Sequence record: OR327751.1
Source of the DNA: Escherichia phage Ecp_YSF
Length of the DNA: 53,268 nucleotides
Reading direction: 5' to 3' (one strand)
A program made the position numbers and the translations under genes. This document shows, one piece after another, positions 3,069 through 48,348 of this stretch. Positions within the stretch are counted from its first letter, which is position 1; each line of letters begins with the position of its first letter. The notes below the pieces were generated by a model, which did not search any database, was not told the DNA's origin, and saw nothing but the letters and a program-made list of their open reading frames with translations.

Positions 3069-5003
3069 GTGTTGTATCCTTGGGAAAATATGTATGCCAG
3101 TGACATTGAAACAACTGGTCTGTTGGAGCAAATGCGTAAGCAAGCTGCACCACGTCTTCACAACATCGGGTATATCGATGTTCTGACTCGTGAAGAAACT
3201 GTAATAGAGTGGACCGACAGAAAGTCTATCCAGGCATTTCTGGATACAGGCCCAACATTAATCATGCACAACGGCGCAACCTTCGACTTTGAAGCACTGA
3301 GGTTCCTTGGTTACGACGTTTCAAAATGTACACTAATTGATACTTTGTTTATCAGTTGGTATCTGCAACCTCGTCGTGTTAAGCACGGCTTAGAAGGTTA
3401 CGGCGAAGAGTTTGGTGTGCCAAAACCAGTCATTGAAGATTGGGAAAATCAAACTCAAGAAGAGTACAACCATCGTGTGATGGAAGACTGCAAGATTCAG
3501 TTGAAGCTGTGGGAACAGCAATACATTCAACTCTTAAAGATTTATAAATCTCCTGGCGAAGTTAAACGCTTCGTTGAATATCTGATGACAAAAGCTCGTC
3601 AACAGGTTATTCAGCAACGAACTCGCTGGAAGTTAAACATTGAGAAGGCACTGGCATTTAAGGCCAAGCTGGAACCAATGATTAAAGAGAAGACGGACGC
3701 ATTGGAAGCATCAATGCCGCGTGTTCCGGAATATGTTATCAAAACCCGTCCAGCTAAATGCCACAAGATGAACGGGCAACTGTCTGCCACTGGAATTAAG
3801 TGGAAGGCTATTTGTGATGCAAACGGTTTGGACTGGAAAGACCCAGACCTGGCTATAAAAGTTCTTAAAGGCTATAAGAAGCCTAATGCTGGTTCACATG
3901 TTCAAATTAAAGACTGGTTGTTCAGCCTAGGTTGGGAACCAGAAACCTTTAAGTTTGACCGTAATAAGGAAACAGGTGAAACTCGCCAGATTCCACAAAT
4001 CACTGTGAAGGATGAAGATGGCAATCCTGAAATATGTCCGAGCTTGCATAAGCTGGCGGAAAGAAACCCCGACTCTGGTATTCAACATCTTATTGGGATG
4101 GGCGTGTATAAACACCGTCTGTCTGTTGTTAATGGCTTCCTTCGCGACGTCGATGAAGATGGGTTCCTTACTGCACGATGTGGTGGCCTTACCAATACTT
4201 TACGCCTTAAACATCGCGAACTTGTTAACCTCCCTTCTATTCGTGTATTTGGCGGTGAAGAACTGCGTTCAATGTTGGAAGCGTGGCGCGAAGATTACGA
4301 ACAGTTAGGCTCTGACTTGTGCTCACTGGAAGACCGTTGTAAGCACCACTTCCAGTGGATGTATGACCCTGAATACGTTAAGAAGCAGTTGGCACCAGAC
4401 TATGATGCTCACCTTGCAATTGGCGTAATTGGCGGATTTATTACCGAACAGGAATCTCAGGACCACAAGGACGGGATTAAGAAGTGTAAACAACGTCCAA
4501 TGTTTAAGACTACAAACTATGCTTGTCAGTATGGTGCTGGTGTACCAACTGTAGCTCGTTCTGCTGGCTGTGACCAGACTACTGCTGCACGACTGCATAA
4601 AGCATATTGGGACTTGAACTGGTCTATTAAAGAGATTGCTGCCAACACCAAAGTTGTAACAATTGATGGTCAGATGTGGCAACAGAATCCAGTAAACAAA
4701 TTCTGGTATTCGTTGCGTACAGAGAAAGACCGCTTCTCCACATTGTGTCAGGGCACTGGTGCATATGTGTTTGATGTTTGGTGTAACAACATCATTGCAA
4801 TTTGTAATGAACGTTGGGGCTGTGACCCGCTTCTGTCTGGACAATTCCATGATGAATTGATTCTCCAAGTTAAGAAAGGTTTCCGTGATTTGTGGACGGA
4901 CTTGCTTAATGAAGCAATGGACCGGACCAACAAAGAACTTAAACTCAATCGTGATTGTGCATGTGATGTACAATTTGGCGATAACTACGCAGAGATTCAC
5001 TAA
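3069..5003 (+). CDS. family A DNA polymerase with 3'-5' exonuclease (T7 gp5-like)
   Basis: Exo I motif DIETTGL. Polymerase motifs DLCSLEDR (A), KTTNYACQYGAG (B) and QFHDELILQV (C). GTG 3069 has GGAG at 3057-3060. Confidence 0.9.
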   Translation: MLYPWENMYASDIETTGLLEQMRKQAAPRLHNIGYIDVLTREETVIEWTDRKSIQAFLDTGPTLIMHNGATFDFEALRFLGYDVSKCTLIDTLFISWYLQPRRVKHGLEGYGEEFGVPKPVIEDWENQTQEEYNHRVMEDCKIQLKLWEQQYIQLLKIYKSPGEVKRFVEYLMTKARQQVIQQRTRWKLNIEKALAFKAKLEPMIKEKTDALEASMPRVPEYVIKTRPAKCHKMNGQLSATGIKWKAICDANGLDWKDPDLAIKVLKGYKKPNAGSHVQIKDWLFSLGWEPETFKFDRNKETGETRQIPQITVKDEDGNPEICPSLHKLAERNPDSGIQHLIGMGVYKHRLSVVNGFLRDVDEDGFLTARCGGLTNTLRLKHRELVNLPSIRVFGGEELRSMLEAWREDYEQLGSDLCSLEDRCKHHFQWMYDPEYVKKQLAPDYDAHLAIGVIGGFITEQESQDHKDGIKKCKQRPMFKTTNYACQYGAGVPTVARSAGCDQTTAARLHKAYWDLNWSIKEIAANTKVVTIDGQMWQQNPVNKFWYSLRTEKDRFSTLCQGTGAYVFDVWCNNIIAICNERWGCDPLLSGQFHDELILQVKKGFRDLWTDLLNEAMDRTNKELKLNRDCACDVQFGDNYAEIH

Positions 5004-34827: not shown

Positions 34828-35382
34828 ATGTTATCATTCAAAGTCCTTGCACTTCTGACAGCTTTAGTTCACATCAACGCCCCAGCTTCGGTTGGGGCAG
34901 TGAATTCTGCTATTACAGATTTTGCAAGTCACTCTTATTTAAATGGAAGTCTGAAACTATCTTCTTCACAACGCAAAGAGCTAGAATGCTATACTAAAGT
35001 TATCTGGTATGAAGCTCGCGGAGAAGACAAACATGGAAAGATTCTGGTAGCTAATGTCGTCCGTAATAGAACTAAGTTCGGGAAGCCATTCGCTAACACC
35101 GTTTGTGATGTTGTCTATCAACGCAATCAATTTGCATGGACACGAGAAGCAAAGAAGAAGAATGCTCAATGGAAGCATGTAGCAAAGATTAATTATGCCA
35201 CAGAACAACAACAAGTTCTGGACACCATTAATGTTGCAATCTCTTTTGTACTATTCAATCAACCCTCTGTCACCAAAGCAACCCACTTTTGTACAGCATC
35301 GGAGAAGTGCAACTTCAAGAATGTTAAAGGTTTGGGACGTTATGGTGGCCATAAATTCTATGAGTATCTAGGAAATCTGTAA
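34828..35382 (+). CDS. SleB-type cell-wall hydrolase endolysin with N-terminal signal/SAR sequence
   Basis: [24 protein letters not shown]...[15 protein letters not shown] is the Hydrolase_2/SleB pattern. N-terminus [24 protein letters not shown]. Confidence 0.8.
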
Positions 35383-36482
35383 TGGCTTACACTACCTTTT
35401 CACAAACCAAGAATAACCAACTATTAGAACCAATGTTCTTTGGTCAGAACGTTAACGTTGCTCGATATGACCAACAGAAGTACAGCATCTTCGAGAAGTT
35501 AATCGAGAAGCAGTTATCTTTCTTTTGGCGACCTGAGGAGGTTGATGTTAGCCAGGACCGAATTGACTATGCTGGTCTTCCTGAGTGTGAGAAACACATT
35601 TTCACCAGCAATTTACGATACCAAATCCTGCTTGATTCCATTCAGGGGCGTGGACCAACTACAGTTTTGCTACCAATTGTGAGCATTCCTGAGCTTGAAA
35701 CTTGGATTGAAACTTGGTCATTCTCAGAGACAATTCATTCTCGTTCTTACACGCATATTATTCGTAATATCGTGACAGACCCAAGCGTAATTTTCGATGA
35801 AATTGTGGAGAATGAGCATATTAAAATGCGTGCAATTGGCATCTCCCAATATTATGACGAGCTTCAACACCTAACTTCCATGTGGCATCTGCATGAAGAC
35901 AAAGTTTCTCTTCGTGAGCTTAAGAAGAAGCTGTATTTATGCCTCATGTCTATCAATGCATTGGAAGCAATCCGCTTTTATGTCAGCTTTGCTTGCTCAT
36001 TTGCCTTCGCTGAACGCAAGTTAATGGAAGGAAATGCCAAGATTATTCGCTTAATTGCTCGTGATGAAGCACTCCATTTGACTGGAACTCAACACATGCT
36101 GAACCTTCTTGCAAGCGGTGTTGATGACCCAGAAATGGCCGAAATTGCTAAAGAATGCCGCCAAGAATGCCAAGAAATGTTCGAAAATGTGGCCCAACAA
36201 GAGAAAGATTGGGCTGATTATTTGTTCAAAGATGGCTCAATGATTGGCTTAAATAAGCAAATTCTGTGCGGATATGTGGAATATATCACGAATATTCGTA
36301 TGCAAGCAGTTGGATTGGATGCTCCATTCAAAGGTGCTACTAACCCGATTCCTTGGATTAACGCATGGTTGAATTCGGATGCTGTACAAGTCGCTCCACA
36401 AGAAACGGAGATTAGTTCGTACCTTGTCGGGCAGATTGATTCCGAAGTGGACACCAATGCTCTTGGCGGATTTGAGCTTTAA
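35382..36482 (+). CDS. nrdB: class Ia ribonucleotide reductase beta subunit
   Basis: Near-collinear with E. coli NrdB as I recall it ([11 protein letters not shown]...), including the C-terminal tail [11 protein letters not shown]. Confidence 0.95.
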
Positions 36483-36495
36483 CGATTATATGCGA

Positions 36496-36529
36496 GAAGA
36501 GATTCGATGCGTTAGCGTCGTTTCTCTTT
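36496..36529 (+). terminator. putative terminator after nrdB
   Basis: Two-part hairpin (GAAGAGA..CGATGC-GTTA-GCGTCG..TCTCTTT) whose 3' arm is T-rich. Confidence 0.5.
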
Positions 36530-36571
36530 GAGCTAGAATAAGACAAGTAAATTAAATATTTATTTATTCCC

Positions 36572-36588
36572 AATATTGCTACAATATT
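36572..36588. promoter_or_regulatory. operator-like near-palindrome AATATTGCTACAATATT
   Basis: Belongs to the AATATTGTGACAATATT family that recurs at 39.6-40.2 kb. Confidence 0.4.
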
Positions 36589-36627
36589 AAGAGTAATATT
36601 AGGAATGCGTAAAGTTAAAACCAAATG

Positions 36628-36651
36628 GTACATGGTCGGTCAACTGTACCT
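36628..36651 (+). repeat. 24-nt element GTACATGGTCGGT-N5-GTACCT (copy 1; copy 2 at 40113-40136)
   Basis: 19 of 24 positions identical, with identical spacing, between the two copies. Copy 1 forms the hairpin GGTACA/TGTACC. Confidence 0.6.
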
Positions 36652-36721
36652 AGACATAGACTTGTTCACAATCGGTCAGCTGTATCTAGCCGGAATTTGT
36701 TCGAACAGAAGTCCGACTATG

Positions 36722-36761
36722 TTATAAAAATTTTTATATAATTTTTTTTAATTTAAATATT
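36722..36761. other. 40-nt tract of pure A/T (candidate DNA-unwinding element)
   Basis: Read directly: no G or C between 36722 and 36761. Confidence 0.6.
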
Positions 36762-36855
36762 GTTACGGAATTAATGAGACTCAAATTGTTTCAATATTAA
36801 TGAGACTAGAATTGTAACGATATTGACGAGACTAGAATTGTGGCAATATTATAAT
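36759..36855 (+). repeat. four tandem 26-bp repeats (ATTGTnnCnATATTnAnGAGACTAG), iteron-like
   Basis: Units start at 36759, 36785, 36811 and 36837 with an exact 26-bp period. Confidence 0.8.
36823..36852 (+). promoter_or_regulatory. possible sigma70-type promoter upstream of the RNA polymerase gene
   Basis: TTGACG (36823-36828), an 18-nt spacer, then TATTAT (36847-36852). Confidence 0.3.
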
Positions 36856-37026
36856 TTTTATTTTGGGCCAGCGGGGGAGGGGAAGCCCAACGTCCTATCG
36901 GACTTAAATACGGTCCCTACTCCAACTTTTTCCTACAGCCTATCGGCTTTCAAACAACACCAAGTTAGGCGCTTCGCTTATGGGTCAAGGTCAAAGTCTC
37001 CGTGCTGTTGTAACAATGGCACAGGT

Positions 37027-37049
37027 TTGTGATATTAGTTGGTTGTGAA
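37027..37049 (+). promoter_or_regulatory. phage RNA polymerase promoter P1
   Basis: Core ATTAGTTGGTTGTGAA matches the family consensus at 15 of 16 positions. Lies 67 nt upstream of the RNA polymerase ATG. Confidence 0.65.
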
Positions 37050-37115
37050 TTGTGTAATGGCTACGCTATTATAATCCGTTTCAGTTAAATCATACACAAT
37101 CTTGGAGACTTACAA

Positions 37116-39056
37116 ATGATTACTATCACCACTCAAACTATCAAATCTGTTGTTCCTGCTATCACTGCTCTGGTATACCGTGCCAAAGAGAAGCAGAACT
37201 ATATGCAGCCTCAGACTTGTGCTATTGCTGCCCTAGCCATATTCAAGATGATGACGTCTTTCACTCGTGATGACGTTGTTCCTGCCATTGCGATGGTTGA
37301 GCTGGCTTCTGCTTCTATTGCTGATGCCAACCGCTACAACAACGATTTGAAAGCAATGCACTATGTTGACCCAGCTATCAACCTCATTGGTTTGGCTAAG
37401 CACTTTGGCTTCATCACCATGAACGAAGACAAGTCATTCCAGCAAACTGACACATGGGTTGAACTGGTTACAACCAAAGACACAGCAGTGCCATTCACTG
37501 AGCGTGTTACATCTGAATCTCGTCGCAAGCCTTTCGTTAAAGGTGGCAAAGTTAAGCCATCCAAAACTCTGAAAGCTGCAATCGAATTCCTGCAAGATAC
37601 TGAGTACCATGTGGAGACTGAGATGGTTCGCATCATCCAGTCCATGCTTGAGCAACGTACTTATGGTGGCTTGCAGATGCCAGAAGCAATCCAAACTGAA
37701 CTCCATGTTTGGAACAATGCTGTAGCAATGATGAATCAGGATAAGCTGTATTCTGACTACTTTGCTGATAACCGTGGTCGTCTGTATCATGTAGCATGTG
37801 CTGGTCCTAACCCACAATCCTCTGACTTTGCTCGTTGCTTGTATTCTCACAATGTTGAGAACATCGTTAAGAAGTTTAACGAAGATGGTTCTACTACCAT
37901 TGCATACAACATGTTCATGGCAGAGCTGGAAGATATTTCCGGTGGTGAATGGTGCAGTGCTAAGCGTTTAACTTATGTTGCTCAGAATCCAGCTGGTTCA
38001 CTTGCTCGCATGATGAACATGCCTAAAGCTGAGCGTCCTTCTAAGCCATTCACTTATGTTCGTCTGGCTCTGGATTGGTTCAAGTTTGAGACTACAGGTG
38101 AATGCGATTCTCGTGTAGGCTTTGGCTTAGATGCTAAATGTTCTGGTACTCAATATCTGGCATTCATTGCTGGTAACATGGAAATGGCTCGTGCAACAGG
38201 TCTGGTTGATTCTGAGACTAAAGCATCTGACCCATACCAGTTGAGTCTTCGTGAACTGTTGAAGCTGCTGGACAAGTCTTCAATGAAACCATCTCCTGAA
38301 ATTATGGATGAATTCTTGAATCCGAAAGCTGGTCGTAAGTTTATCAAAACTCCATACATGGCTATCCAATATGGTGGTGGTAAAGCTGCACTAACTGGTT
38401 CTTCTGACTTTATCTCCTACATGACAGAAGCTCTCCAGATTCCTATGGAGAAAGCTGAGGCATTTGCTGAACTGTGTGTAGAAGCAATCCATAACGCATT
38501 GGGTGCTAAGATTAACATGTTCATTGAGAAAGCTGCTGATGCTGCATACAACCGTTGTGTTGAACTTGGTAAAGAGTACATCACATACCGTCACACTGAT
38601 GGTCAGGTTGTAATGAAGCCTTGCTTCCCATCTCGTGAAATCTGTGAGGCATTCAGCATTCGTGTTGACTCCCAAACTCGTGTTATCTTTGGTCAGATTC
38701 AGGAGAATAAGCCTTGGACCATTCGTGAATCCAATCCAACTAAAGAAGAATTCAAGCGTACTTTCGTTGTTAACTACATTCAAGGTATTGACGCACTGGT
38801 TGCTCGTACTGTTGCAGTTAAAGCTAAAGAAGCTGGTCTTCGTGGCTTTACTTCAATTCACGATTGTTTCCGTTGCTGCTTAGCTGATGCTCCACGTATG
38901 ATGGAAGTTATTCGTGCAGCATATGTTGAAATCTTCGTAACCAACAATCAATTCGAGAATCTGTCTAAGCAACTCGGTGGCATTCAGATGTATCATGAGA
39001 ACATCGTAACCGAAGAGCTTCTGATGAGCGAACACGCTTACTACTTCTGTCAATAA
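37116..39056 (+). CDS. single-subunit DNA-directed RNA polymerase (T7-like, compact, 646 aa)
   Basis: Motif A-like GLDAKCSGTQYLA, motif B-like KFIKTPYMAIQYGGG, motif C FTSIHDCF. RBS GGAG upstream. Confidence 0.9.
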   Translation: MITITTQTIKSVVPAITALVYRAKEKQNYMQPQTCAIAALAIFKMMTSFTRDDVVPAIAMVELASASIADANRYNNDLKAMHYVDPAINLIGLAKHFGFITMNEDKSFQQTDTWVELVTTKDTAVPFTERVTSESRRKPFVKGGKVKPSKTLKAAIEFLQDTEYHVETEMVRIIQSMLEQRTYGGLQMPEAIQTELHVWNNAVAMMNQDKLYSDYFADNRGRLYHVACAGPNPQSSDFARCLYSHNVENIVKKFNEDGSTTIAYNMFMAELEDISGGEWCSAKRLTYVAQNPAGSLARMMNMPKAERPSKPFTYVRLALDWFKFETTGECDSRVGFGLDAKCSGTQYLAFIAGNMEMARATGLVDSETKASDPYQLSLRELLKLLDKSSMKPSPEIMDEFLNPKAGRKFIKTPYMAIQYGGGKAALTGSSDFISYMTEALQIPMEKAEAFAELCVEAIHNALGAKINMFIEKAADAAYNRCVELGKEYITYRHTDGQVVMKPCFPSREICEAFSIRVDSQTRVIFGQIQENKPWTIRESNPTKEEFKRTFVVNYIQGIDALVARTVAVKAKEAGLRGFTSIHDCFRCCLADAPRMMEVIRAAYVEIFVTNNQFENLSKQLGGIQMYHENIVTEELLMSEHAYYFCQ

Positions 39057-39097
39057 CATTAATTGGGTCAAGGATGACCACAAACTTGGAGACTACA

Positions 39098-39298
39098 ATG
39101 AATACCATGCAAATCAATCAAATCGAAAACTGTTTCAATCCTCATCACACCTGTGACATGAGTGATTTATCTCGTCCTACGGTGGAGGAGACTAAAGACT
39201 TCTTAGAATTGTTATCAGAATATAAGCAAGAGTCGCATGTATTATTGCACGCATTCTTGCATAATTCTGGATTCTTTGATACAGAAATACCGTTCTGA
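39098..39298 (+). CDS. small acidic protein ending in ..FFDTEIPF (66 aa)
   Basis: ATG 39098 lies 6 nt after GGAG (39088-39091). The ORF-track start ATG 39074 has no spaced RBS. Confidence 0.55.
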   Translation: MNTMQINQIENCFNPHHTCDMSDLSRPTVEETKDFLELLSEYKQESHVLLHAFLHNSGFFDTEIPF

Positions 39299-39303
39299 TA
39301 CTT

Positions 39304-39329
39304 GGGAGCTTCGGCTCCCTATTTTTGTT
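39304..39329 (+). terminator. strong rho-independent terminator after the RNA polymerase operon
   Basis: GGGAGC-TTCG-GCTCCC followed by TATTTTTGTT. Confidence 0.85.
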
Positions 39330-39367
39330 CTAATTAATCTTAGAGCTGGCTTCAATATTGTAGCCAG

Positions 39368-39390
39368 TTGTAACATTAGTTGGATGTGAA
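39368..39390 (+). promoter_or_regulatory. phage RNA polymerase promoter P2
   Basis: Core ATTAGTTGGATGTGAA matches at 16 of 16 positions. The hairpin AGCTGGC..GCCAGTT lies immediately upstream. Confidence 0.7.
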
Positions 39391-39633
39391 GTAACAGAAT
39401 ACGGAGAAGTATTCCGCATGTCATGTTGAAATCATTCTAGAAACATTTCAGCATGTCAACTAAACATACAGCGTTGTAATGATGTGGCAATCATTGAACT
39501 CCCTGTCTTTGGCCGGACAAAGTTCCAGCAACCATGTGTGAAGTAGGAATATCATTCGAAACTGTTCTTCAAATAAACATGACTTATCCCTAAAGAAGCT
39601 GGGACAGCTCATGTAGTACCAGCATGTTCAATT

Positions 39634-39661
39634 GTGACAATATTGCTCCATCTCCTATTAT
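39634..39661 (+). promoter_or_regulatory. possible sigma70-type early promoter
   Basis: GTGACA (39634-39639), a 16-nt spacer, then TATTAT (39656-39661). Confidence 0.35.
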
Positions 39662-40058
39662 AAAGGCCCACCCACAAGCCGGGAGATAACTTTGGTAATA
39701 TTGGAACTTTTGGACATGCTTCTTTCTTTCAATCAGAATTCGAAAGAAGAGAAGAGTCGGAGCAAAGCCGCGAAACTAATCCCGTAGCCCGCCCCGATTT
39801 TGAGCAACAAATATTGTGACAATTTTGTCGCAGTATGGCATGTAAATATTGCTACAAATTGGCATGTTGGAATGTGGCAGAATTGTTAGAGGACTAATCC
39901 CCTCGAAGATACAATCGTCTACCAATCTGGCATGTTATTTTTGTAACAGTATTTGTGCCAATTTCGCATGTATTAGCTGTATCAGTATTAACCCAATATT
40001 CTTGCAACCCGCATGAATACTGGCTTCCAGCCAAGCGAAGGCTTTATCATCGCATGTA

Positions 40059-40075
40059 AATATTGTGACAATATT
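40059..40075. promoter_or_regulatory. perfect 17-bp palindrome AATATTGTGACAATATT (operator-like)
   Basis: Read directly. Related sites lie at 39629-39645, 39810-39826, 39845-39860, 39937-39953 and 40207-40221. Confidence 0.6.
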
Positions 40076-40112
40076 GGGATAAAACCCTTTATTTAATTAG
40101 TTTTATTATGCT

Positions 40113-40136
40113 GTACATGGTCGGTTTTCCGTACCT
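40113..40136 (+). repeat. 24-nt element GTACATGGTCGGT-N5-GTACCT (copy 2)
   Basis: Matches 36628-36651. Confidence 0.6.
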
Positions 40137-40262
40137 GCTTGCTCCAATCTTAATGTGCCAAATACGTTAAGTATGGGAGTAAACCTGTAATTAATGGTGC
40201 ATGTTTAATTGTGACAAAATTCGTCTATTTGGCAGATGAATTAGTTGCAATTAAGCATGTTC

Positions 40263-40285
40263 ATTTATCATTAGTTGCATGTGAA
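40263..40285 (+). promoter_or_regulatory. phage RNA polymerase promoter P3
   Basis: Core ATTAGTTGCATGTGAA matches at 15 of 16 positions. A weaker copy, ATTAGTTGCAATTAAG, lies at 40240-40255. Confidence 0.6.
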
Positions 40286-40484
40286 TAAGACCAAATCTCT
40301 GTAAATTCTGCCGAAATTGTGTGACAGATTTTAGAGAGATTATGTCTCCAAGCTAATCATTGCAGTTTTTCGACACTTTGTGTGTCACATATAGCCTGTG
40401 AAAAACGTGTGGTATATTGCTGGATTGCGACGCGCCCACCAGACTAGGAAGTCACTGACGGCGGCACACACAGGAATACTATAT

Positions 40485-40555
40485 AACTCCCTACAACTTT
40501 AAGGTGGATTGAGGTAAGACAAGACCTCCACAATCGTTCTGTAGGGAGTTCTTTT
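40485..40555 (+). promoter_or_regulatory. structured leader element (11-bp basal stem plus T-run) just upstream of the first early gene
   Basis: AACTCCCTACA (40485-40495) pairs with TGTAGGGAGTT (40540-40550), followed by CTTTT. Confidence 0.35.
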
Positions 40556-40571
40556 AACTCAGGAGAATAAA

Positions 40572-47984: not shown

Positions 47985-48007
47985 CTGAAACATTAGTGGG
48001 ATTTGAT
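47985..48007 (+). promoter_or_regulatory. phage RNA polymerase promoter P6
   Basis: CTGAAACATTAGTGGGATTTGAT. Confidence 0.5.
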
Positions 48008-48124
48008 TCTGACCACTTAGGGAAGAAAGGCATTATACACTTATCGCCAAATGGGTGTCAAGCACTTTCTTCATTTATTTAATTTATTCTTATTATTCTT
48101 TTTGTTTGGAATATTGGAATAATC

Positions 48125-48147
48125 CTGAAACATTAGTTGGAATTGGA
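48125..48147 (+). promoter_or_regulatory. phage RNA polymerase promoter P7
   Basis: CTGAAACATTAGTTGGAATTGGA, which abuts ATG 48148. Confidence 0.55.
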
Positions 48148-48324
48148 ATGATTAAAGTTCTGGAAAAAGATAACGTAACCTTCGCACGTCAGTGTGGAGG
48201 ATGTTTCTCTGTAGTATCTTACGTGTTCTCTGACTTAAAGATGTACACAGGAAAGAATGACCGAGGATACTTCGCATACAGATTCATTACTTGTCCTGTT
48301 TGCAAGAAGAGTATTCGGCATTAG
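48148..48324 (+). CDS. zinc-ribbon protein (58 aa)
   Basis: CGGC...CPVC. The ORF-track start 48055 gives an AT-rich, low-complexity extension. Confidence 0.5.
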   Translation: MIKVLEKDNVTFARQCGGCFSVVSYVFSDLKMYTGKNDRGYFAYRFITCPVCKKSIRH

Positions 48325-48335
48325 TTGGAATTGAA
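48313..48335 (+). promoter_or_regulatory. phage RNA polymerase promoter P8
   Basis: Core ATTAGTTGGAATTGAA matches at 14 of 16 positions. It overlaps the stop codon of the preceding gene. Confidence 0.6.
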
Positions 48336-48348
48336 ACAACATCAGATA

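Follow-up and report, generated by a model that had tools for sequence, protein, structure and literature searches.

The region upstream of the RNA polymerase gene of Escherichia phage Ecp_YSF (OR327751.1) contains a long stretch of pure A/T that runs into a set of 26-bp tandem repeats. The initial annotation read this arrangement either as a replication origin, with an unwinding element beside iterons, or as an operator array controlling early transcription of the polymerase gene, and the question is which of these readings, or what other function, the locus best fits. We examined it within a window of 53,268 bp, the whole stretch of DNA analysed, in which all coordinates given here are positions. 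Ecp_YSF is a Carltongylesvirus (Chaseviridae, Cleopatravirinae) of the phiEcoM-GJ1 group, and the 4.5 kb around the array are 90-97% identical to the corresponding DNA of ~40 Escherichia, Yersinia and Shigella myophages, flopper being the best match (95.9% over this region). In the Chaseviridae a contractile tail is found together with a T7-like RNA polymerase. The genomes are non-permuted and carry the polymerase gene within direct terminal repeats of ~2.3-3.2 kb (PMC12842549; PMC8762354); according to the ICTV profile, the promoters used by the phage polymerase itself have yet to be identified (PMC12842549). In the literature accessible to us we found no paper describing these repeats, parts of which are already flagged as a bare repeat_region in flopper and as a promoter feature in phiEcoM-GJ1.

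The array is located in a 633-bp gap between nrdB and the polymerase gene (Table 1), in a genome in which all genes lie on the + strand and the replication genes are annotated as T7-like (helicase-primase, family A polymerase and SSB). The terminator hairpin that follows nrdB is kept in 15 of 15 aligned relatives. Two small open reading frames in the gap (36605-36727 and 36823-37032) were taken as non-coding because they have no family matches and are disrupted in relatives, and a search of the entire window with Rfam at gathering thresholds returned no families. Upstream of the polymerase gene, the phage-promoter-like motif ATTAGTTGGTTGTGAA belongs to a type that has 12 matches against 2.8 expected, all on the + strand, and that agrees with the phage promoters annotated in GJ1 and SA91KD.

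The distal A/T tract, which is exactly where the initial annotation had placed it, is the longest G/C-free run in the window; composition predicts only 2e-6 runs of at least 40 nt. The next-longest G/C-free runs, of 21 nt (36548-36568) and 20 nt (the proximal A/T run), lie in the same intergenic gap, and 36718-36817 forms the most A/T-rich 100 bp of the genome (84%). The repeat units start at 36759, 36785, 36811 and 36837, and Tandem Repeats Finder describes 36759-36841 with a period of 26, 3.2 copies, 80% matches and a score of 103. The reported starts and exact period therefore hold, but the count of four full units does not: three are complete, with 19-21 of 26 bases common to any pair (73-81%), and a truncated fourth shares only 11-15 of 26 bases with the others. 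The unit consensus first proposed also needs qualification, since unit 1 has CGGAATT in place of CnATATT.

Table 1. Features of the gap upstream of the polymerase gene, the repeat flanks and the termini mapped from relatives (window positions; offsets in bp from the repeat boundary).
Feature	Position	Strand	Details
nrdB	35382-36482	+	Pfam Ribonuc_red_sm match
Terminator-like hairpin and T-run ending the nrdB (late) unit	36505..36531	+	Stem 36505-36520, then TTTCTCTTTG
Distal 17-bp palindrome CCC-AATATTGCTACAATATT	36569..36588	.	Best left-arm copy; 0 mismatches to AATATTGnnnCAATATT
Two 36-bp tandem units carrying TGGTCGGTCAnCTGT	36628..36687	+	Third copy at 40113-40136, right arm
Distal 40-nt G/C-free tract	36722..36761	.	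Includes TATAAT at 36737-36742
Three full 26-bp units	36759..36836	+	Dyad (A/G)AATTGnnnC(A/G)ATATT, then spacer (A/G)A(T/C)GAGACT(A/C)(G/A)
Sigma70-like promoter TTGACG-18-TATTAT	36823..36855	+	10/12 consensus; alternative -10 TATAAT at 36850-36855
Truncated fourth site ATTGTGGCAATATT, 14 nt	36837..36850	+	Fused to proximal A/T run
Proximal 20-nt A/T run AATATTATAATTTTTATTTT	36845..36864	.	A/T-only sequence
G-rich block and mini-hairpin GTCC-TATC-GGAC	36865..36904	+	Inferred left terminus 36899-36904 inside
Phage-promoter-like motif ATTAGTTGGTTGTGAA	37034..37049	+	Upstream of RNA polymerase gene
Single-subunit RNA polymerase gene, 646 aa	37116..39056	+	Pfam RNA_pol E = 3.7e-18; so annotated in relatives; inside terminal repeat
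Right boundary of direct terminal repeat, inferred	39754..39758	.	Mapped from Mangalitsa position 3234 and JL1 record end
Right-arm palindrome cluster	39628..40221	.	Sites 39628, 39810, 39845, 39937, 39984, 40059, 40207
Left-arm dyads			Offsets -328, -144, -118, -92, -66 from nearer boundary
Left-arm TGGTCGGT			Offset -266
Right-arm dyads			Offsets +51, +86, +178, +225, +300, +449
Right-arm TGGTCGGT			Offset +359
Terminus, JL1	left 36899, right 39758		Left cut between CCTAT and CGGACTTAAATACGG; exact 2995-bp duplication in record
Terminus, Y2	left 36901		Between TGTCG and GAC; exact 2608-bp repeat in record
Terminus, PM1	left 36901		Between TATCG and GGAG; exact 2665-bp repeat in record
Terminus, Mangalitsa	left 36904, right 39754		PhageTerm; record begins TTAAAATACGG
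Terminus, 4HA13	left 36904		PhageTerm; record begins TTAAATACGG
Terminus, Myduc	left ~36899		Record ends at CCTCCCTAT

Each 26-bp unit holds an imperfect 17-bp dyad, AATTGnnnCAATATT, and the four array sites show mismatches at 2-3 of 14 specified positions while keeping the 26-bp period. A scan for AATTGTNNCAATATT with up to two mismatches gave 16 matches against 3.2 expected, a number that none of 100 shuffles reached. Thirteen of the 16 fall within 36572-36850 or 39630-40221, with a looser scan in agreement, which bears out the proposal that the units belong to the palindrome family at 39.6-40.2 kb. Outside the two large non-coding regions on either side of the polymerase operon, the dyad is essentially missing. 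In the right arm the palindromes are interleaved with about a dozen GCATGT repeats, and a 54-nt inverted repeat joins 36535-36588 to 40059-40112. The single-strand fold of the array is not significant (z = -0.62), and the dyads are for this reason more sensibly regarded as duplex binding sites than as hairpins. A hairpin or cruciform as the driver of the array was rejected on the same value. Hairpin promoters of the N4 type (7-bp stem, 3-nt loop) were also rejected: the stems are all A/T bar one closing pair, nothing conserved lies 3' of the right-arm dyads and no fold signal is seen. We also set aside a structured RNA or DNA element 3' of the array, for which RNAalifold on nine genomes gave only a weak consensus (-13.7 kcal/mol) with a covariation term of +0.5 and compensatory changes at 3 pairs.

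The position of the array became clearer when the genome termini of relatives were mapped onto the window. The left termini of six phages from five genera agree within six bases and fall in the 3' half of the mini-hairpin GTCC-TATC-GGAC, which together with the G-rich block before it is the most conserved block of the intergenic region. By homology, Ecp_YSF would have a direct terminal repeat of ~2.86 kb extending from 36899/36904 to 39754/39758. The boundaries of PYps23T, the subject of a wet-lab study, differ: its exact 2339-bp repeat corresponds to window positions 37044 and 39384 and is bounded on both sides by phage-promoter-like ATTAGTTGGA followed by (C/T)GTGAA, the boundary lying between the two. 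By either mapping the repeat would exclude the A/T tract and the units, its left boundary falling 40-184 bp downstream of them, and by the mapping from six relatives the array lies 40-140 bp outside the left terminus. Being outside the repeat, the array would occur once per virion, beside the right-hand repeat copy, and since the promoter described below would also be outside it, the polymerase gene copy at the left end would have neither array nor promoter.

Viewed from these boundaries, the dyads, the TGGTCGGT motif and A/T-rich stretches flank both ends of the terminal repeat on the outer side. This two-arm layout is kept in Y2 (Erwinia) and PM1 (Pectobacterium), with element order and spacing retained in phages whose polymerases are only ~71% identical to that of Ecp_YSF. 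Right-arm dyads lie at +73/+188 in Y2 and +60/+199 in PM1, right-arm TGGTCGGT at +356 and +364, and the right-arm phage-promoter-like motif at +511 in Ecp_YSF, +490 in Y2 and +517 in PM1; TGGTCGGTCAnCTGT is conserved on both flanks in Y2 and PM1. The dyad motif persists across phages of Escherichia, Yersinia, Erwinia and Pectobacterium. In IMG/VR, multiple copies of the exact dyad occur only in Chaseviridae contigs, with scattered single matches elsewhere, and an anchor-sequence scan recovered only three known isolates. In an informal comparison with consensus sequences, the dyad did not fit a CRP, FNR, Fur, LexA, ArgR, Fis, IHF or DnaA site. Searches of PHROGs (30 small or unknown frames) and Pfam (10 mid-size frames; 33 distinct frames, mainly from the early region) found no regulator, initiator, helix-turn-helix protein or small terminase, and a 61-aa frame upstream of the large terminase gave sub-threshold zinc-ribbon matches only.

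A new transcription unit must start in the gap, because the nrdB terminator lies 200 bp upstream and the downstream genes are all on the same strand. The best sigma70-like match in the region is TTGACG-18-TATTAT (36823-36852, 10 of 12 consensus positions), with an inferred start near 36859. It overlaps the last two units, as first reported, and corresponds to a site annotated as a putative host promoter in phiEcoM-GJ1; the regional count of promoter-like matches is at shuffle level (12 between 36.3 and 40.7 kb, against 11.8 expected). A second promoter-like site lies at 39632-39661, where the dyad overlaps the -35 in Carltongylesvirus and the -10 block, CCTATTATAA(A/T)GGCCC, is nearly invariant across three genera. 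The literature searched yielded no transcript-mapping data for the Chaseviridae.

The best reading of the locus, which we advance tentatively, is that of tandem operator-like sites over a host-type promoter directed into the RNA polymerase gene. We infer that the 26-bp units are tandem sites for a sequence-specific, probably dimeric, DNA-binding protein, placed on a promoter region for host RNA polymerase whose transcripts would run through the concatemer junction and on into the polymerase gene. Because the -35 and the -10 of TTGACG-18-TATTAT/TATAAT are covered by the last two of these sites, occupancy of the array would turn off or tune host-polymerase transcription of this gene, while the two A/T runs would surround the promoter with DNA that melts or bends easily. 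The array would then be the left arm of a two-armed palindrome set situated just outside both boundaries of the ~2.9-kb repeat. In the virion, promoter and array would be found only beside the right-hand polymerase copy, and once genomes are joined they would be present at every junction.

Several observations speak for sites of this kind. The 17-bp dyads with variable central bases have the usual form of dimer operators, and across 22 genomes the interval between the -10-like TATTAT/TATAAT with its T-run and the conserved block that follows is fixed. The confinement of the motif to the flanks of the polymerase operon, its persistence in phages of four host genera, the overlap of the last two sites with the promoter match and the lack of a strand fold point the same way. 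Others speak against them. The sequence TTGACG is present as the -35 only in Ecp_YSF, GJ1 and TH29; in most of the 15 close relatives it is weaker, TTAACG or TTAATG, whereas the -10 (TATTAT/TATAAT) is retained in most. No match of at least 9/12 is found at the promoter position in flopper, 2KOFFS, JL1 or TH33, and the -35/-10 spacing is not retained in PM1. The 40-nt tract, at ~-98 to -138 from the inferred start, is too far upstream for a UP element, which would be expected at ~-40 to -60; in Y2 the equivalent A/T run lies at ~-45 to -72. No DNA-binding regulator was recognised among the 33 scanned frames, mostly of the early region. The shuffle-level count of promoter-like matches, the variability of the sites in relatives and a promoter position outside the terminal repeat also weigh against this reading. 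Of the two readings in the initial annotation, control of early polymerase transcription is still the one that fits best, as a possibility short of probable.

Comparison with relatives, which the initial annotation had recommended, shows how loosely the array is held. We aligned 15 close relatives and added two, giving 17 Carltongylesvirus genomes. A distal A/T run is present in all 17 (32-48 nt, in two sequence variants), arrays have 2-3 GAGACT spacers, and the dyad half-sites and GAGACT spacer are kept in most units of the 17 genomes and of Faunus. Unit spacing is 26 bp in most of them, 24 in JL1 and Mangalitsa, 36 in ST32 and 47 in GJ1, and relatives show gains or losses of exactly 26 bp. 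Unit 2 is degenerate, having lost its right half-site, in SA91KD, 2KOFFS and BSBP01, and site 2 of GJ1 and site 4 of Bp10 are each interrupted by an insertion of ~20 bp, CTCACTTCG(T/C)TCG.... Since sites are lost, degenerate or split by insertions, individual sites must be dispensable. Nearby, a 36-bp repeat and a 45-bp module also vary in copy number, the 36-bp TGGTCGGTCAnCTGT unit being single in TH24 and BSBP01. Copy number, unit length and sequence of the array differ from phage to phage, which is largely the outcome that the initial annotation had named as telling against its proposals.

Beyond the close relatives, Faunus keeps two units, with a small open reading frame between them and the proximal A/T run; in PM1, whose units measure 25 and 35 bp, the dyads come with a different spacer, AACGGCTC; in Y2 and Nougat the place of the 26-bp array is taken by ~five GATTCGA repeats with a period of 12; Myduc has its own ~25-bp repeats; 4HA13 has no array, only one dyad-like last site fused to the proximal A/T run; and one metagenomic relative is without the array. 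Other elements of the gap are far more stable. The distal palindrome is invariant in 15 of 15 relatives and has counterparts in Y2, PM1, Faunus and 4HA13; the G-rich block and mini-hairpin after the proximal A/T run are likewise invariant. The proximal A/T run (16-26 nt), which usually includes TATAAT or TATTAT, starts 51-58 bp upstream of the terminus in 22 of 22 genomes across genera, whereas the distance from array to terminus varies from -65 in Ecp_YSF to ~-110 where a 45-bp insertion is present and ~-180 in Faunus. The array is real and non-random, yet evolutionarily plastic and only loosely constrained, and the 26-bp repeats look as if an ancestral unit, made up of the last site and the A/T run, had expanded in this lineage by duplications in steps of 26 bp.

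Such a history could account for the whole array if it were a slippage product with little function of its own: 26-bp duplications of the last site, TATAAT and T-run would have arisen in a junction region that is A/T-rich and prone to recombination, and the copies would have been tolerated. The exact 26-bp gains and losses, the 2-3 spacers, the unit lengths of 24, 36 and 47 bp, the degenerate unit 2, the ~20-bp insertions inside sites in GJ1 and Bp10, the copy-number variation of the neighbouring 36-bp repeat and 45-bp module, and the retention in 4HA13 of the last site and A/T run alone are all consistent with this. It sits less well with the retention of half-sites and GAGACT in most units of 17 genomes and Faunus at a period that is mostly 26, with the dyad-plus-spacer units kept by PM1 despite its different spacer, and with a motif that is strongly non-random and conserved elsewhere, and we consider it quite improbable as the full explanation.

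The proximity of the array to the mapped terminus points to another possibility, that the locus is a concatemer-junction or packaging element, in which the repeats and A/T runs would be recognised by, or shape the DNA for, the machinery that cuts at the left boundary and duplicates the repeat, by analogy with the pac region and short-repeat arrays found around the terminal repeat of T7. This machinery might be the terminase, or an accessory protein that nicks or bends DNA, and the right-arm palindromes would serve the other boundary. In keeping with this, the array ends ~40 bp from the terminus inferred through six relatives of five genera, the palindromes and TGGTCGGT lie outside both boundaries at similar offsets in three genera, and the 54-nt inverted repeat links the two arms. 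A/T runs lie upstream of the terminus in every genus examined, the proximal one at its fixed 51-58 bp in 22 genomes. In most genera, moreover, short tandem repeats peculiar to the lineage are found there (with periods of 12 in Y2, 25 in Myduc and 25-35 in PM1), as would be expected if the sites co-evolved with a cognate protein. Against this, the array-terminus distance is variable, 4HA13 and the metagenomic relative do without the array, and more than 10 sites over ~1.5 kb are unlike known pac or cos sites. The small terminase subunit is not recognisable by annotation or profile searches, the lack of a significant strand fold means that hairpin-primed models gain nothing, and the termini themselves are inferred from relatives, with the PYps23T wet-lab study placing them elsewhere. 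On balance we regard a packaging role for the array as doubtful, although it comes next after the operator-like sites.

In a broader version, which we consider unlikely, the two palindrome arms would act with TGGTCGGT and the A/T runs as one dedicated cis-module, setting the limits of the ~2.9-kb terminal repeat and bringing about its duplication. The dyads of both outer flanks would be occupied by a protein that positions the cuts, at the conserved hairpin (GTCC-TATC-G^GAC) and at the purine-rich right boundary, and end formation would be coupled to transcription from the flanking host-type promoters, just as T7 couples it to transcription from phage promoters. If true, a system that sets the boundaries of a long terminal repeat would be defined for the first time in a myovirus with a T7-type polymerase.

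The replication origin, with the A/T tract as unwinding element and the 26-bp units as initiator-bound iterons, fared worst of the proposals. Its appeal lies in shape: the most A/T-rich 100 bp of the genome includes a 40-nt G/C-free run beside 3-4 dyad-containing direct repeats, much as the lambda origin has four dyad-containing iterons beside a ~40-bp A/T-rich region. No initiator-like protein was found, however, among the 33 scanned frames, and none is annotated in SA91KD; TTATCCACA, the DnaA box, has no match with up to one mismatch in 35812-40280; and cumulative GC skew rises monotonically through the site with no inflection. The would-be iterons also differ between relatives in number, spacing and sequence, and sister lineages do without the array. 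Origins of the T7 type consist of phage promoters followed by A/T-rich DNA, and given the T7-like replication genes a better candidate lies at 47.99-48.34 kb, within ~1.2 kb of poorly coding DNA: three phage-promoter-like motifs are found there, along with the 100 bp that rank second in the genome for A/T content. An origin at the array is, in our estimation, very unlikely.

We therefore rank operator-like sites over the polymerase promoter first, followed in turn by a junction or packaging element, slippage and an origin. The analysis places the array at the concatemer junction, defines a 17-bp dyad restricted essentially to the terminal-repeat flanks in several genera, and narrows the left terminus, in six relatives, to a span of ~six bases within the conserved mini-hairpin. 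Taken alone the array is a modest finding, and the wider module that brackets the terminal repeat is the more interesting lead.

Three known systems offer parallels. Lambda operators are 17-bp dyads spaced 23-24 bp apart, and the array shares with the lambdoid OR1-3 and OL1-3 its imperfect 17-bp dyads, three or four in tandem, its A/T-rich spacers and the overlap with promoter hexamers, at a centre-to-centre spacing of 26 bp rather than 23-24. Unlike the lambdoid phages, Ecp_YSF is strictly lytic and has no recognisable repressor gene; its sites are much less conserved between relatives, lie at a terminal-repeat junction and have a second, dispersed motif cluster 3 kb away. With the lambda origin and plasmid oriV the array has in common dyad-containing direct repeats that adjoin a ~40-bp A/T-rich stretch, but in Ecp_YSF no initiator was recognised among the frames scanned, the array is without DnaA or IHF boxes, its repeat number and spacing are unconstrained, and sister genera do not have the array. 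The third parallel is the T7 concatemer junction, where SRL and SRR arrays reportedly flank the 160-bp repeat, with pac and end-proximal promoters. The terminal repeat of the Chaseviridae is 2.3-3.2 kb and holds the polymerase gene, compared with 160 bp in T7, the units are 26 bp with 17-bp dyads in Ecp_YSF rather than 7 bp, and the putative junction promoter of Ecp_YSF is, unlike that of T7, of host type. Common to both are a single-subunit RNA polymerase, T7-like replication genes and non-permuted direct terminal repeats, assigned to Ecp_YSF by homology and present as exact terminal duplications in the JL1, Y2, PM1 and PYps23T records, together with lineage-specific short repeats outside both boundaries (-328 to -66 in the left arm and +51 to +449 in the right arm of Ecp_YSF) and a promoter reading across the junction.

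The right boundary of the inferred terminal repeat is spanned by a non-coding region of about 1.2 kb, which contains approximately 12 GCATGT repeats, the dyads (imperfect 17-bp palindromes), TGGTCGGTTTTCCGTACC and two phage-promoter-like motifs. In the Erwinia phage Y2 and the Pectobacterium phage PM1 the blocks follow one another in the same order and at the same spacing, even though polymerase identity is only ~71%, which amounts to strong constraint. Within it, the sigma70-like -10 element CCTATTATAAAGGCCC-N6-CAAGCCGGGA is almost unchanged in Carltongylesvirus, Y2 and PM1; it lies within the repeat, ~95 bp from the right-hand end, and is directed towards the early genes.

Positions of features in the window and in related phages
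Feature	Sequence	Position
~20-bp insertion	GJ1 (L002)	318-337; 2941-2960
~20-bp insertion	Bp10 (L016)	~4340
~20-bp insertion	Mangalitsa (L003)	2918
~20-bp insertion	2KOFFS (L012)	7019
Site equivalent to 45-bp insertion	window	~36875
Small reading frame	Faunus (L019)	4047-4187
Small reading frame	4HA13 (L054)	562-666
Mini-hairpin GTCC-TATC-GGAC	window	36892-36903
Mini-hairpin AGCC-TATC-GGCT	window	36937-36948
TGGTCGGT motif, left flank	window	36628-36687
TGGTCGGT motif, right flank	window	40113-40136
Phage-promoter-like motif ATTAGTTGGA|(C/T)GTGAA	window	37034-37049; 39375-39390
Non-coding region	window	39300-40560
CCTATTATAAAGGCCC-N6-CAAGCCGGGA, sigma70-like -10	window	39654-39686
Three phage-promoter-like motifs	window	47992; 48132; 48320
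Candidate T7-style origin	window	47990-48340

The terminal repeat of phage PYps23T (L009/L010), experimentally derived as 2339 bp, carries the phage-promoter-like motif ATTAGTTGGA|(C/T)GTGAA at both boundaries, and 2341 bp separate the two copies of this motif in the window. These boundaries differ by ~140 and ~370 bp from the ends in six other phages. The termini may vary from phage to phage; alternatively, the PCR/ligation mapping in PYps23T may have crossed over at the shared motif. The left genome terminus inferred from the other phages falls inside the first of two mini-hairpins that have the loop TATC in common. Their stems show compensatory changes in Faunus (ATCCC...GGGAT) and PM1 (CTCCC...GGGAG), and the consensus given by alifold is weak.

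A recurrent ~20-bp insertion in relatives, (A/G)CTCAC(T/G)T(C/T)G(T/C)TCG..., is preceded by ATT in every case, and may represent a very small indel of mobile or templated origin. Within the array of 26-bp iterons it interrupts site 2 in GJ1 and site 4 in Bp10; in GJ1, Mangalitsa and 2KOFFS it also occurs a short distance downstream of the promoter of the 39375 type. The window lacks it. A 45-bp insertion, GTTGTGACATTATTATTTTAAAATTTTTATCTCCGAGGAGGGGAAG, is present in TH33, MLP1, EcoM1 and Bp10 (L013, L014, L015 and L016, respectively); it resembles a diverged second copy of the module that consists of a half-dyad, TATTAT, an A/T run and a G-rich block, and it re-creates an A/T run at position -52 relative to the terminus. 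In two genera, a small reading frame (MKPDYKK... in Faunus; MKPNYV... as read from the sequence of 4HA13) separates the distal repeats from the proximal A/T run; this frame is absent from Carltongylesvirus. Over the region around the array, the record of Staphylococcus phage Pel53 (PP952070.1; stated host Staphylococcus hyicus) has 90% identity to E. coli Chaseviridae, and its host assignment looks doubtful.

The conserved TGGTCGGT motif is found on both flanks in identical orientation in all genera examined, the left copy being a 36-bp tandem with a copy number of 1 to 2. This motif includes TGGTC, a strong recognition sequence of the T7 primase. Near 48 kb, three further phage-promoter-like motifs surround the 100-bp segment that ranks second in the genome for A/T content, within a poorly coding stretch of ~1.2 kb, making this location a candidate T7-style origin.
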